The notes: a model not told the origin generated them from the sequence alone. 64,000 nt of DNA from Vezdaea acicularis (GCA_026025075.1 JAPEUI010000004.1:248001-312000), one strand, 5' to 3'. Positions 40,013 through 46,077 are shown, counted from the first letter of the stretch. Made by a program: numbers and translations.

Positions 40013-40267
40013 AATTGCCTAAGCCTCTGCTGATACGGCAGTGAGAGCTGAGAGCGAGACGCCCGCAATGAGGGAGAAACTGAATTTGGTTGCAATCAAA
40101 CCTCTAGAGGTCTTAGTGGGCAGAACTTTTCGGACGGTGCCAAGATTTCGCTACGGTGAGGCAGGACGGCTGAAAGTGCAGCTACAAACCGGAAGAAGCT
40201 AACCAAAATAACTCGAATCCCGAGCTCAAGCAATCCATCATCCACGGATAATTGTACATTCCGATCG

Positions 40268-42307
40268 ATGAGACAAGTCCAACATGTTGTGCGCATATCA
40301 AGACCATCGGTATGCCATCTTGCATCCACTCGCAAATTCGGCTCCAACGCACTACAGCAATCCTGCGCCTTGAGGCAAACCTCTTCACCCCCGAGGCGCC
40401 TCTCTACTCTATACCCGGCAGTGCCAACACTTGCGAGATTATCCAATTACAGCAGCAATAAGAGCACAAGCGTCCGTGATGGGACCACTTCTGATGCCGT
40501 CGCAGCAGTAGAACCAACCATATATGCCCTCTCAACCGCCCCAGGTAGGGCAGCCATAGCCATCATCCGCATCTCAGGCCCCGCCTGCCTCTCGGTATCT
40601 CATCCCTACCCCAACATAACGCTATACTCCCCTCTCCAGTCCTCTGGCTAATTTTCCACCTAGATCTACAGAGCTCTCTGTCCCTCCCTCCCTCTCCTCT
40701 CTCCGCGCCGGGCTACATTGCGCACCCTCTACCAACCACACGAAACTCCTTCCGCAAGCACCATCCTCGACTCTGGGACCATCGTGCTCTATTTTCCCGC
40801 CCCAAACACCGTAACTGGCGACGATGTGCTCGAGCTGCATATCCATGGCGGTCCTGCAACCACAAAAGCCGTCTTACGCGCTATCTCCTTATGCAACGGC
40901 GGTTCCGGCTGCCGCTCCAGCGCCTTGCGCGCAAGCTACACAACCTCCCCTAGTTCTTCCACACCAAGCGCACGCAACCATGCTCCAACCCGCTCCGTCG
41001 AACCAAGTGGCGGGAGCACCAGTCCTCCATCTCCAATCCGCTACGCCGAGCCAGGCGAGTTCACCCGCCGCGCCTTCGAGCGCGGCCGCCTCTCCCTCCC
41101 GCAAATCGAGGCCTTAGGCCACGTCCTCGACGCCAGCACTGAGCGCCAACGCCAGCTCTCCGTGCTCGGCTCCTCGAACCGCCTCGCGGCGCGCTACGAG
41201 GACTGGCGCGCCCAACTCCAGCACGCCCGCGGCGAGCTCGAAGCCCTCATCGACTTTGCCGAAGACCAACAGTTCTCTGAAACGCCGCGGCAGCTGGTCG
41301 CTGGGGTCACGCGGAAAGTGGTCAGGCTGAGAGGCCAGATTAAAGCGCAGCGCGAGAATGCGGTGCGTGGAGAGCTGCTGAGGAGCGGTATCGCCGTTGC
41401 GTTGCTTGGCGCGCCAAATGCGGGGAAGAGCAGCTTATTGAACTGCATCGTCGGCCGCGACGCCGCTATCGTGAGTCCCGAGGCGGGAACTACGCGCGAT
41501 GTGATGGAGCTCGGGGTTGATCTGGATGGCTGGTTTGTGCGGTTCATGGACTGTGCGGGCTTGAGGGGCGGTGAGGGGGTTGGACTAGTGGAGCAGGAGG
41601 GAATGAGACGTGCGAGGGAGAGGGCCGTACAAGCGGATGTTGTCGTCCTACTACTTTCCGTTGCGCCCGGCGAGGATACAGACGCCCAGGCGGAAGTCCT
41701 GGAGCTGGCGAAGAGTCTGGACGATGCCAAGAAGAACATCGTCGTCGTCCTCAACAAAATCGATACCCTCCCGACCCCCAAGACCGTTTGCAAGACCGAC
41801 TTGGCGGAAACCCTACAAACTGCACTCCCGGGCCTAAGTCCCGAAAGGATCTTTACCGTATCGTGCAAAGCCGCAGCAGAAGAGCACCTCGAAAAAACGG
41901 ACCCAGGGGGCATCCAAACATTCCTAAAAGGCCTAACCGCGAAATTCCACGACCTCACCTCGCCGCTCTCGCTGGACGGCGGAGGATCGGAGGGAACCCT
42001 CGCAGACCCTTCAGTCTCGGAGGAGAGTCTAGGCGCCACAGAGCGTCAAAGACTGCTGCTCGACGAGTGTCTGGGATGTCTAGACGCCTTTCTTGAGGAA
42101 GTGGAGCAAGGAGCGGTCTCGGCGAACGAGGACGAGGACGAGGACATAGATGCGGAGAATGATGAGACGGAGCTCGATGTGGTTCTTGCGGCAGAGTGGC
42201 TTAGGGAAAGTGCGGATTGCCTCGCGAAGATCACGGGGCGGGGCGTGGCGGGCGATGTGGAGGAGGTGTTGGGGGTTGTGTTTGAGAAGTTCTGCGTGGG
42301 GAAGTGA
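40268..42307 (+). CDS. MSS1: Mitochondrial tRNA-modification GTPase MnmE/TrmE
   Basis: TIYALSTAPGRAAIAIIRISG, TGDDVLELHIHGG, AEPGEFTRRAF, GAPNAGKSS, GTTRD, NKID, terminal FCVGK; intron ~40596-40663. Confidence 0.95.
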
Positions 42308-42482
42308 AGGAGGAGGAGCTTGGAGGGAGTGGAGTGTCTGGCGGATGACTTCTTCTCGTACCACCGAATGCTGTAAAGTTTACAGTGTGCAATGTTGGTA
42401 GAGGCAGATCTGGATTACTATTAAAGTCACGGGACTACTATCGTACAATCTATGCGTCGATGGTGGTACAGTCTAAAAGCAA

Positions 42483-42876
42483 ATGCAAAACCTCCCTGAA
42501 AATGCTGAAAATGCCGAAATGCCCGAAATGTGGCCTCGCAAACGCCTGCTCCATGCTTTTTGGTGCCCTCCGCTAAACTCGAGGTTTAGCCCGAGTTTTG
42601 ATAGCTTTGCCTGAGGACGTCTATATGATGCTATGCCGAGTGTAAATGCTGAAGAAGGACGCCGATATGCCAAAGTAACCAATGCTGAAAATGAAGCTGA
42701 GAACAGAAAAATGCCGCTATGCCCGAGTGAAAATGCTGATGAGAAGAAAAAAACGCCGGTAAGTAAATGCCGCTATGCTGATGATTGGGAAGAGATGCTC
42801 CGATGAAAATGCTGATGAGACGCTCCGACGAAAATGCTGAGAAGTCGCTAATTGAAACGCTCAGAGGCTGTGATGC
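42483..42876 (-). repeat. Dispersed cluster of GCAU (plus GCGU) motifs in the putative 3'UTR of the GRGGYN ORF
   Basis: 19 ATGC tetramers on the + strand in ~395 bp (hand count), mostly in AAATGCTGA/AAATGCCG/TATGCC contexts, plus several ACGC variants. Confidence 0.85.
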
Positions 42877-42921
42877 TGACATAGGAAATCTGAGGGGATG
42901 AGCCCGGCTCGGAGAACGCTC

Positions 42922-43107
42922 TTAGTTGTAGCCACCGCGGCCCTCGTCGTCTTTGCGGTTGTAGCCTCCCCGTCCACCTAGGGTTGGTTTCTGGTTGTAG
43001 CCACCGCGACCGCCAAGGGTTGGCTTTGAATTATATCCACCGCGTCCAGCGAGGACCATTATGCTGGCAGAGGCAGAAGCCGAACGGTTGTATCCACCAC
43101 GGCCCAT
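42922..43107 (-). CDS. 61-aa micro-protein with five GRGGYN repeats
   Basis: ATG with A at -3 and G at +4; repeat copies differ only at third codon positions; TATATAA on the minus strand at ~43522-43528. Confidence 0.85.
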   Translation of the reverse strand: MGRGGYNRSASASASIMVLAGRGGYNSKPTLGGRGGYNQKPTLGGRGGYNRKDDEGRGGYN

Positions 43108-46077
43108 CGTGTTTGTGGGATTGAGAAGTTGATATTAGGGTTCTTGTTATGCTCAGGTAAACCTGTTGGCTTTAAGTCGTAGTGCGTACTTTTAGTAGCG
43201 ACGAGAACCGGGAATCGACAGGAAAGAGATAGAGATATGGAAGATTAAGAAATCTAAAGAAAGCGGGATGACGGATAGGAAAGGCTGATATAATTGGAAA
43301 TCGAAATATCAAGCGCGAGTTGAGAGAGTAGGAGAGAAGGAGAAAACCTTGACTTCTATGAGACAGTGTTAGGCAGAGGCGTATTAAGGTTCGTTGGTGG
43401 GGTTGAGTGAGGTGGAGCGGGTTCTAGTGAGGAAGGAGAACTGAAAAGGAAATACGAGTAAGGAGAATATTGCTGGATGGTAGATGTGGAATGACTCTGA
43501 ATCAGTGGAGGATCCGGTCGATTATATACAGCCTCCTCTCACTCTTCAGCGCGGGCGTCTCAGCGCACGGCCCAATTGGGTCATCTCTTCCGACAGCGTG
43601 ATAGCACACCGCGCGCCCCGGCCAGCAGAATGACAACGGTCATGCCAGAGGTCATCGGCGAGCGGTGGTTATTCGAGCGGTGGATATCGAGCAGTGCCTC
43701 ATTGTGACGGGACCAAGCGCGATGCAGCCTTACGAGGAACGCTTTTCACGGCGCTAGCGACGGCGACCCACTTGGTCGGTGACGAGGACGAGGGACAGTC
43801 AGACTAGGCTTACTCGAGAGCTGGTGCAGGCCAGGGCGCTGGCACGGGCAGGGAAGGGCGTGCAGCGGCCGTTGGTCGAATCAGAGCGGCCATGGGGAGT
43901 ATTCGCCGGTGCGGGCTCAGTGCTCACCGGAGGGGCCAACGGCAAGTCGGTGGGATGCGCAGGCGGTGCATTGCGATGCTGCCCCCATCGCGGTGATGGC
44001 ATTAGGGCATGCCATTGGAGACATTCTTTTGCGTGCAGAACGGTGATTGGAGTGTGGCGGGGATCCCCGCGACCCCTCACGGGCCGTCGCTTAACTTAGC
44101 TCGCCAAGCCGTCACGACACAGAATAGCAGTCACACCGCTCACCCAACACCCCCCCTCCTTGGTGGAGCGTGGGGCCACCGACAGCCGACTGCTGCGCCT
44201 CAGCCAACTTTGCCCGAACCGGTGGTGGGGCTTACCACTGACCCCTTCAACACCGTCTTTTCACCTATCGGTCAGGGAAACGCAAAGCTTCTAGCGCCTC
44301 ATCCATCCTTCCATTCGTTTTCCTAACGTGGTAAGGCCACGATAAGTCATCTCCTCGGACGAGAAAGTCTCCCTGTCCCCCTCCTCCTTCCCCTTGCACG
44401 CCCCAACGGACGTGGACTCCTCATGCAAGTATTGCTCCTCTCAATGATGATTGTTCCTGGGTCTCGCCGTCTGCGTTCTGCGACCAGCACGAGAGACAGA
44501 ATCCGAAACTGCAGGAGCACGTTGGACGAAGAGCAGGTTGTTGGACGCTTAGCCGCGTCGATCCCAGACCGCGCTGATGCTTCAGTGCTATTTTCGATGC
44601 TGTGACCGTTTTTCGCGTGGGCACGAGCGCTAGAAGGTCGAGAATAGAGTGCGAATCCTCCGATGCAGGCCTCGCCGCCACGGCAACAATCCGGCGCTGA
44701 GCATGCGGAAGGGCGTGGGATGATGCCTGCTTCGAATTGCTCGAAATGACAGCAGAGAACGGGCATGGACGGGGCAGAAGGGTGGGAGTCGGTCAGCGGT
44801 GTTCCTGGTCCTCCGTCGGTGTCGCATCGGATGGAAAAACTTAGACCCGCCTCTAACTTTGACGATATCCTTCGCCCGGCGTCTTGATTGGCCAACCGGA
44901 TAGAAAGGACAGGATTAGGTCATATCAGAAGATCCCATCGCAGCTCAAACCCGTCGTATTTCGGTACCACCCTCTCATTCCGCCTTGGTTGCAAGAGCCG
45001 CTAGGCAGGCTGTGCTGCGTCCGCCCTAAGCTTAGCCGAATCTTCTGGATATCGTGAAGAAGCCTCTATCGGCTATCGCTTCAACGGACGAGCACGATTT
45101 GGCAGCTCTATCCTGAAGCTACGCAATCGATATTGGATTGATACTGCATTGATTTTACGATACAGTGCCATGCTCGGGCTCATTCGGAATGCGTGTCTTG
45201 ATGAACCATGTCGATACGACAAGCGGGGGGCGACAGGTCGGTCGTAACGAATGCGTAATCTATCGACGACTGCCTCAGACCTTCGTGGACGGAGAGATCG
45301 CACAAACGGTTGCCCGAGACGACACGAGAGGTGACGTTTCTGCTTCGCGACAGCTCAAGAGTCATCGGTAAGCTGCGAGATGTCTAGAATATTGAGTGTG
45401 GACAGCATTAGGGGGGCATGATGCTGAAAGGGGTGGATACTGAGCGTAGCGGACAGAAAAATTTCATTGGACATTTTTGAAAAGGGGACGCCTTGAATTG
45501 GCCGTGGCTTGGTCTTGTGTGGGCCGACCATTTGCACCGCCTCAGCCCTAATGGTGATTGGACCGAAAAACAAAATATTTTGAGTTCGACGCAATCTTGA
45601 CTGAACACGATTGAGAATTAGAGCCATCGATGATACTGCGGCCTAAATCTCACTTGCGTGATGTGCTGATAATCCACTGCTTGCACCTATCGGTTTGCCA
45701 ACTCAGTTTAAGCACCATCACGTGAGGTTTGCGGAGAGCGCGAACAGACCAACCGATGACATGCGGGGTGAATGTTCCGAAGGATCATCACCATCAGACT
45801 TGTCTTGCACGATTAGTACAAGTAGCTAGTTTCACATGTTTCAGTATCTTCCATATGAGATTCTTCGCTTGCTTCTGCGTCCTTTTCTGGGTGCGTCTTC
45901 GGGCTCGGATGAGCTCGCCTATTCCACACCAACATCTTTAGTGATACGCTCTCCCGACACGTGATTCTCCTGACCCGCTGCATTCGTATCATCACAGAAC
46001 CGCCAGATGGAGTAGCGGCAACATTACCCCTTCATCAACTCAATATCTGCAAGCAGCAAGTTGCTTCCAAATGCAGC

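Follow-up and report, generated by a model that had tools for sequence, protein, structure and literature searches.

The systems closest to the gene considered here are of several kinds. KEX2-processed repeat proteins (KEPs) and alpha-factor-type precursors are built from tandem short invariant cores with variable spacers, the last core lying at the C-terminus, and KEPs are recognised by a signal peptide and at least three near-identical tandem cores bounded by KR or RR. Precursors of RiPPs, peptides made by the ribosome and modified after translation, of the dikaritin/ustiloxin type are encoded in clusters with DUF3328/UstYa and tailoring enzymes. The RGG/RG regions of FUS, Npl3, Scd6 and Hrp1 are disordered and place Arg-Gly-Gly beside an aromatic residue, and in an RGG box (di- or tri-RGG) the triplets stand 0-4 residues apart. 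Hydrophilins, a class by composition only and not by homology, are defined by a Gly content >6% and high hydrophilicity. In a 64-kb stretch of DNA from Vezdaea acicularis (JAPEUI010000004.1:248001-312000; hereafter the window), an open reading frame (ORF) at 42922..43107 on the minus strand encodes a microprotein of 61 residues that consists of a methionine and five copies of the hexapeptide GRGGYN with variable spacers. The gene belongs to an undescribed family that is a variation on known kinds, the repeat-peptide proteins and the RGG-type disordered proteins.

The window protein shares with KEPs and alpha-factor-type precursors its tandem identical cores, its variable spacers and its C-terminal last core, but it has neither a signal peptide nor cores bounded by KR or RR, so that Kex2 processing in the secretory pathway cannot apply to it. 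The string GGYN does not occur in the accessible main text of the KEP surveys PMC7329392, PMC6339444 and PMC9769878, nor in the accessible supplements of the first two. Unlike dikaritin/ustiloxin-type precursors, the gene is not clustered with DUF3328/UstYa and tailoring enzymes among the ORFs scanned. It resembles the RGG/RG regions in its Arg-Gly-Gly beside an aromatic residue and in its predicted disorder; unlike the RNA-binding proteins that contain them, it is tiny, has no RNA-binding domain and conserves an exact hexapeptide including the Asn, and its triplets are 8-16 residues apart, outside the spacing of an RGG box. Its composition is that of a hydrophilin, being small, Gly-rich (28%), hydrophilic (grand average of hydropathy, GRAVY, -1.07) and predicted disordered, but this leaves the invariant repeated hexapeptide unexplained.

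The Open Reading Frame and Its Five Cores

The frame runs from an ATG at 43107-43105 to a TAA at 42924-42922, with the last sense codon at 42927-42925, and its 61 codons translate as MGRGGYNRSASASASIMVLAGRGGYNSKPTLGGRGGYNQKPTLGGRGGYNRKDDEGRGGYN followed by the stop. The GRGGYN cores occupy residues 2-7 (43087..43104), 21-26 (43030..43047), 33-38 (42994..43011), 45-50 (42958..42975) and 56-61 (42925..42942), all on the minus strand, and the stop codon comes directly after the fifth. A preliminary description, made from the sequence alone, had given exactly this translation and these five core codon strings, to which only the strand has to be added. Its remarks that the protein starts and ends on a core and has a good start context also hold: the protein begins on M-GRGGYN and terminates right after its last GRGGYN, and the ATG stands in cacgATGG, where position -3 is A and position +4 is G. 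The assignment of 42922..43107 as coding sequence is based on this translation, on homologues and on purifying selection.

The five cores already carry a record of selection. The 33 pairwise nucleotide differences among them are confined to codon position 3, and every one is silent at the amino-acid level. The five versions cannot be derived with fewer than eight independent substitutions. Of the 54 single-base changes that one core can undergo, 14-15 are synonymous, so that under neutrality eight synonymous changes out of eight would have a probability of about 0.26^8 = 2e-5. Between the 12-codon units SKPTLGGRGGYN and QKPTLGGRGGYN, seven codons are different, six of which still specify the same residue. 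No further GR.GYN is found in the six frames of the 64-kb window. An in-frame intron within the first spacer was considered and rejected, the sole GT...AG pair covering ~22 nt.

Conservation and Synteny of the Gene

A scan of metagenome contigs yielded 17 related loci, representing about eight distinct lineages with several near-duplicates. Every locus has a small ORF with two to four GRGGYN, and the ORF ends on the motif in all except the L014/L015 pair. Orthologue pairs are 76-87% identical within the ORF where their 200-nt flanks are 43-70% identical, and the ratio of nonsynonymous to synonymous divergence (dN/dS) is about 0.03-0.24 overall. The comparison of L002 with L003 gives a dN of 0.066 and a dS of 2.19, with 33 of 42 differences at codon position 3; L003 and L009 differ with a dN of 0.034 and a dS of 0.61 (16 of 20 at position 3), and L011 and L006 with a dN of 0.083 and a dS of 0.40 (14 of 22). 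The close trio L011/L012/L013, with few changes, has ratios of 0.05-0.24. Low dN/dS between orthologues and the synonymous-only divergence of the cores within the gene together uphold the purifying selection that the preliminary description had proposed.

The position of the gene is conserved as well. In the window it converges with an MSS1/MnmE-type tRNA-modification GTPase (40160..42307, plus strand; Pfam TrmE_N, MMR_HSR1 and MnmE_helical), the two stops at 42922 and 42307 being 614-615 nt apart. At 16 of the 17 loci the small ORF is followed immediately downstream by a convergent MSS1 homologue, with 34-64% identity to the window MSS1 over aligned pieces; the seventeenth locus, L012, ends 389 nt past the small ORF. 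Even the minimal version of the gene, 19 codons with two units (MGRGGYNGPRLQKGRGGYN-stop; L016 327-383 and L017 6123-6179), is still convergent with MSS1, at a distance of ~950 nt. In L006, Mak16 follows MSS1, matching the order in the window. Synteny with both MSS1 and the formin sepA had been suggested as a check, and only the MSS1 half of it stood: the formin is upstream of the small ORF in no related locus, and the scanned flanks have no common Pfam family upstream, so that a conserved upstream neighbour was rejected.

It is very improbable that the ORF is no independent gene and that it arose by chance within a repeat or forms part of a larger transcript, as an exon or an untranslated region (UTR) feature. 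The ORF is indeed very short, and in a few gene models of homologues, P0031 and P0084 among them, the protein is extended upstream. However, these extensions are not conserved in sequence between homologues, whereas the ATG and stop positions are, together with the MSS1 synteny, and conservation is much lower outside the ORF than within it. Along with the synonymous core divergence and the low dN/dS, these observations largely refute the non-gene explanation. The comparisons establish, on sequence grounds, a stand-alone and selectively conserved protein-coding gene of a filamentous ascomycete, and place it, as the local orthologue, in a widespread family without a name whose members lie tail-to-tail with MSS1 across very divergent lineages.

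An Unnamed Protein Family

A word-indexed protein search with the single sequence gave nothing at E<=0.01. An exhaustive phmmer search of 1.84 billion representatives gave 21 matches at E<=1e-3, 18 of them with GR.GYN repeats; among them, P0005, P0013 and P0016 are prokaryote-style ORF calls whose last 59-61 residues read M-GRGGYN ... GRGGYN-stop with five units. A profile built from six such sequences retrieved 123 proteins of 32-128 residues at E<=1e-3. Among the 120 matches listed, 119 have at least two units (three in 69, four in 36 and five in 11) and 105 end exactly on the motif, and the family extends from two units in L016/L017 to six in P0003. The window protein has all the features by which the family can be delimited, namely a length of 40-80 residues, two to six GRGGYN, an end on the motif, no leader and convergence with MSS1. 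The taxonomic range is drawn from protein databases and metagenome contigs; the named sources, in which the protein is always a "hypothetical" or "uncharacterized protein", are Hyaloscypha, Glarea, Hymenoscyphus, Cadophora, Rhexocercosporidium, Hyphodiscus, Bisporella, Scytalidium and Exophiala mesophila. A protein of 146 residues in a Cadophora malorum cluster (P0197) is labelled by NCBI as coming from a Deltaproteobacteria metagenome-assembled genome, and its source is probably a fungal contig that was binned wrongly.

The statement that the protein belongs to no characterised family has also been borne out. The best Pfam match of the ORF, DUF7327, has an E of 6.7 and 7.2 bits against a cut-off of 27 and is therefore below threshold, and 18 homologues match no Pfam family. 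The best score in the ESM Atlas (0.82) is to a cluster of 195 members represented by a 76-residue Ascomycota "hypothetical protein", which serves as a lead only. Searches of the full-text literature for the motif, its variants, its flanks and locus tags found no description of the family but only papers on NLS, RGG or polyproline-II subjects and unrelated ones, although supplements might hold it unnoticed; one preprint matched to "GRGGYN" (10.1101/2020.07.30.229062) is, in its accessible text, an artefact of "...RGGY-NH2".

Properties of the Microprotein

Our preferred reading, to which we would assign a probability of roughly 0.4, is that the microprotein, located in the cytosol, presents a short linear motif multivalently to a postulated structured partner that reads it. 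Having no leader, it would stay in the cytosol, display GRGGYN multivalently and be recognised by a structured reader, which might be a binding domain or a modifying enzyme. A protein made of the motif only could then act as a multivalent ligand, a cross-linker or a competitor that buffers access to the reader, and its dosage would probably be set post-transcriptionally through the one-orientation GCAU(U) cluster behind its stop codon.

The absence of a signal peptide, claimed from the outset, was confirmed by the crude hydropathy screen on which all signal-peptide calls given here depend: no 10-residue stretch exceeds a Kyte-Doolittle mean of 1.78, the one that reaches it comes after the first motif and there is no n-region, whereas secreted-looking family members reach 2.5-3.3 on such a scan. 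Likewise, there are no KR Kex2 sites, the single dibasic pair being RK at residues 51-52. AlphaFold2 with an alignment of 40 sequences gave a mean predicted local distance difference test (pLDDT) score of 54.1, a predicted template modelling (pTM) score of 0.12 and no secondary structure, and the microprotein is thus predicted to be intrinsically disordered. Its net charge is +7, but across 40 members of the family values from -9 to +9 occur, the median being -5, and many Helotiales forms have DDDEEED before the last unit. The RGG triplets of the window protein start at residues 3, 22, 34, 46 and 57, with gaps of 16, 9, 9 and 8 residues.

The motif itself behaves differently. Of 426 loose motif matches, 421-425 have the expected residue at each of G1, R2, G4, Y5 and N6, and 390 have G at position 3; variants with one mismatch were permitted in this count yet are rare. 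It counts against the preferred reading that the motif itself served to retrieve the sequences, which makes the invariance circular in part. What is conserved is the hexapeptide and its multiplicity, and not the charge, the spacer sequence or the spacer length. Because the net charge varies between -9 and +9 while the hexapeptide, including its Asn, is near-invariant, specific recognition would be favoured over bulk chemistry.

The contrary view, that the microprotein is a generic Arg/Tyr sticker-spacer protein or a hydrophilin making non-specific cation-pi and RNA/polyanion contacts with no dedicated reader, seems to us quite unlikely. Its role would then be that of a condensate modulator, an RGG decoy for an arginine methyltransferase or a stress protectant. 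Disorder, Gly content and hydrophilicity would all suit such a protein, as would five Arg and five Tyr in R-G-G-Y register, and an RGGY-type peptide forms polyproline-II helices stabilised by cation-pi contacts, according to the accessible part of a preprint (bioRxiv 10.1101/2020.07.30.229062). The GCAU-rich 3' region also suggests a link to a condensate-forming RNA-binding protein. However, low-complexity stickers usually keep a composition and not an exact hexapeptide, whereas five of the six positions are practically invariant here, and the invariant Asn plays no part in cation-pi contacts. The flip of the family net charge from +9 to -9 argues against binding of RNA or polyanions by bulk charge, and the wide spacing of the RGG triplets does not suit it either. 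For reasons of spacing, charge and the near-invariant exact hexapeptide, the RGG decoy or condensate modulator of the preliminary description is not supported in the form in which it was stated.

Some more specific roles were considered and rejected. N-myristoylation of the MG... terminus is at odds with the consensus, which accommodates neither Arg at position 3 nor Tyr at position 6. Head-to-tail cyclisation by an asparaginyl endopeptidase, a plant mechanism, needs a tail behind the Asn, which the last unit does not have, and there is no secretory route. A decoy for Kap104 (transportin) through a PY-type nuclear localisation signal (NLS), whose signature is a C-terminal R/H/K-X2-5-P-Y, is not supported either: the microprotein has no PY, and although the NLS of Hrp1 contains RGGYN, the accessible part of PMC2408616 reports that its change to AAAAA leaves Kap104 binding unaffected, so that RGGYN is dispensable there.

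GRGGYN in Other Proteins

GRGGYN is also iterated in larger fungal proteins. Calpain-family Peptidase_C2 proteins of ~780-1100 residues make up 20 of the 56 longer matches (P0154, P0161-P0165, P0169-P0173, P0175, P0177, P0178, P0180-P0182, P0184, P0186 and P0189) and carry 6-10 GRGGYN-type units (LQGRGGYNQNMPGE...) in a disordered insert; they come from Alternaria, Parastagonospora, Phaeosphaeria and others, that is, Pleosporales and relatives. The Pleosporales calpains P0154, P0163 and P0186 resemble the microprotein in iterating the identical hexapeptide with short spacers in a disordered segment. Unlike it, they have ~800-1100 residues, a catalytic domain and internal repeats, and the likeness is one of motif only. 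The insert lies between a Lys/Glu-rich helical stretch and a conserved C-terminal segment, as it does in P0183 of a more divergent lineage. A complex prediction of the calpain core (P0163 residues 90-600) with the microprotein scored 0.59, against 0.82 for an unrelated-partner control, and so speaks neither for nor against an interaction. Four Ser/Pro-rich proteins (P0007, P0014, P0148 and P0155) have seven or eight units, and P0001, P0002 and P0008, for example from Hypoxylon sp., share a common N-terminal domain followed by many DGRGGYNQP(Q) repeats. That domain reads IPP..IPPEVL.MPF....E.FPWLPR.LQ.H..DYNPRYLY and has no Pfam match at E<=0.1. The role of ligand or competitor proposed above would follow from this occurrence of the iterated motif in larger intracellular proteins, of the calpain, Ser/Pro-rich and P0001/P0002/P0008 types.

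Other GRGGYN proteins look secreted. A hydrophobic N-terminus is present in ~14 of the 120 short matches listed, and KR or RR follows directly after at least two units in six of the 120 (P0048, P0081, P0085 from Phialocephala, P0090, P0115 and P0136 from Heliocybe). The same layout, signal-peptide-like with KR/RR, is seen in P0006 from the exhaustive search, and several of the KR/RR-type proteins also terminate on bare GRGGYN. Proteins of Suillus and Mycena have REPGRGGYNRE and ARGRGGYNAPPK repeats. In plants, 4-8 GR[GS]GYN units are found in P0058 (rice Q6Z713), P0082 (Leersia), P0081 (Jatropha), P0121 (Hevea) and P0150 (Drosera); four of the plant proteins have a signal-peptide-like N-terminus, and the fifth, the Drosera model, has an MBOAT domain fused to it. 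The Hevea protein carries the Pfam family GRP (PF07172) and ends exactly on GRGGYN. Plant secreted glycine-rich proteins with four or five GR[GS]GYN units thus resemble the microprotein, but they have a signal peptide, belong to another kingdom and use different spacers (SVNPD, E.P.). The plant proteins may be either homologous to the fungal family or convergent.

These paralogue-like secreted forms lend indirect support to a further explanation, a peptide precursor of the sort raised in the preliminary description, namely that the microprotein is a leaderless pro-peptide, a counterpart of the secreted Kex2-type GRGGYN repeat proteins, which a cytosolic or vacuolar protease would cut into active peptides ending in ...GRGGYN-COOH, possibly for non-classical export. 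The KR/RR layout of the signal-peptide-like proteins P0006, P0085, P0090, P0115, P0048 and P0136, with a unit followed by KR or RR and a bare unit at the end, is of the alpha-factor type, and Kex2 with a carboxypeptidase would leave peptides ending in GRGGYN. The exact ending on the motif in 105 of the 120 family members listed would suit such a product, as would spacers that vary freely as in multi-copy precursors, and an acidic run before the last unit is common to leaderless forms (DDDEEEDGRGGYN-stop; KDDEGRGGYN-stop in the window) and secreted ones (EDGEDGRGGYN-stop). Against this, the window protein has no signal peptide and one RK pair only, and the residues that follow the motif are so diverse (R 97, G 64, A 60 and K 60 of 417) that the family has no obvious common cleavage site. 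Large intracellular proteins, moreover, use GRGGYN internally.

The neighbourhood does not point to processing either. A Pfam scan of 87 of the 103 window ORFs of at least 110 residues, plus the MSS1 and formin ORFs, found housekeeping families only and none of the peptide-maturation enzymes sought (DUF3328/UstYa, P450, tyrosinase and prolyl oligopeptidase), and a biosynthetic gene cluster within the window was rejected. No maturation enzyme was found in the scanned flanks of related loci, where the scan covered 65 ORFs out of the 146 with at least 120 residues and left out ORFs overlapping the small ORF, MSS1 or each other, as well as loci L009, L013 and L016. On balance, we regard the pro-peptide as an unlikely but serious alternative to the cytosolic motif carrier.

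The GCATT Cluster behind the Stop Codon

The region between the small ORF and MSS1 is marked by a cluster of 12 GCATT (21 GCAT) at 42367..42837, in the sense orientation of the small ORF (minus strand), which starts 85 nt past its stop codon. The 614-nt gap between the two stops would be expected to contain 0.68 GCATT, and none of 2000 shuffles reached 12; in the opposite orientation neither GCATT nor GCAT occurs. The 21 GCAT copies correspond to 34 per kb. On the plus strand of the window, all six exact matches to AAATGCYGA are within 42500-42840. A 25-bp unit, GAGACGCTCCGACGAAAATGCTGAT, repeated in tandem in ~2.3 copies at 42792-42849, locally duplicates two of the GCATT sites.

A one-orientation cluster of 8-12 GCATT copies is also found in L001, L002, L003, L005, L006, L009 and L010, whose flanks are otherwise only ~50-65% identical. 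In these loci the first copy (YCAGCATTTYC) is always 85-102 nt past the stop of the small ORF, while the distance from the last copy to the end of MSS1 varies from 28 to 183 nt. In L007, MSS1 is 2 kb off, yet the first copy is again at +85. The steady distance from the stop codon, as opposed to the variable distance from MSS1, and the case of L007 favour assigning the cluster to the small gene, in whose 3' UTR it is probably a cluster of cis-elements. No Rfam match at E<=1 was found in 42200-43700.

A parallel is provided by yeast, in which GCAU/UGCAU is a motif associated with targets of the RNA-binding protein Whi3. According to the accessible part of PMC3875557, the motif occurs at 3.1-3.6 per kb in yeast mRNAs and has 12 copies in CLN3. 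The window cluster resembles these Whi3-associated GCAU/UGCAU clusters.

Weight of the Evidence and Significance

The reading of the microprotein as a dosage-controlled cytosolic motif carrier has to be set against several observations. With regard to dosage, the GCATT cluster is absent or weak in L011-L013 and in L016/L017, and since it sits between two convergent genes, it could instead belong to the MSS1 transcript, as AAUGC. The yeast parallel is weakened by the statement in the accessible text of PMC3875557 that direct binding of Whi3 to UGCAU had yet to be demonstrated. With regard to recognition, the reader of GRGGYN is postulated, and an intracellular reader cannot act where GRGGYN stands behind signal peptides with KR/RR in fungi or in secreted plant proteins; these secreted forms fit a released peptide or an intrinsic chemical property of the motif at least as well. 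Finally, the exact ending on the motif need not mean that a free C-terminus is read; a neutral ratchet, with nonsense mutations removing tails that are dispensable, could produce it too.

A broader proposition, which we consider doubtful, is that GRGGYN is an unrecognised and deeply conserved fungal peptide "word", possibly shared with plants and served by a dedicated reader, and that the microprotein is either its dosage-controlled regulator or a cytosolic precursor, with an mRNA under a Whi3-type GCAU(U) cluster. If this were true, fungi would deliver GRGGYN in three ways, as internal repeats of intracellular proteins such as a calpain-type protease, as secreted peptides released by Kex2 and as a leaderless motif-only microprotein, and gene and GCAU(U) cluster would have stayed together ever since very distant lineages of ascomycetes diverged.

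It is routine for microproteins to be overlooked or to remain labelled "hypothetical"; the one described here is the orthologue, by synteny, of a family found in several fungal classes, and it is under strong purifying selection. A hexapeptide conserved to this degree would imply a specific molecular partner that nobody has sought, and a synthetic peptide of six residues is a simple handle for fishing it out. The family may connect cytosolic and secreted peptide biology in fungi, and the GCAU(U) cluster provides, for filamentous fungi, a clear example on which control through the 3' UTR can be tested.

Upstream Region and Neighbouring Genes

The window is a filamentous-ascomycete-like segment rich in housekeeping genes, including TACO1, D123, an aspartyl protease, GH63, an RBR ligase, aconitase, a Far11-like N1221/DUF3402 protein, Mak16, LeuRS and an amino-acid permease. 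Upstream of the small ORF, the next gene recognisable in the Pfam scan is the formin, which starts at 45913. The upstream TATA mentioned in the preliminary description is present as TATATAA at about 43522-43528 (minus strand), 421 nt 5' of the start codon. It lies in a stretch of 474 nt (43108..43581, minus strand) that by composition is ATG-free, G-poor (12% G) and C/T-rich and that is probably the promoter-proximal region together with a long 5' leader; related loci with enough upstream DNA have 119-503 nt free of ATG before the start. From the small ORF to the formin (43108-45912) there are ~2.8 kb with no ORF recognisable by Pfam, and in related loci several kb 5' of the small gene are likewise without Pfam matches. 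Within this interval of the window, the GC content rises to 0.64 around 43600-44200, and a 190-codon open frame is present at 44350-44919 on the minus strand.

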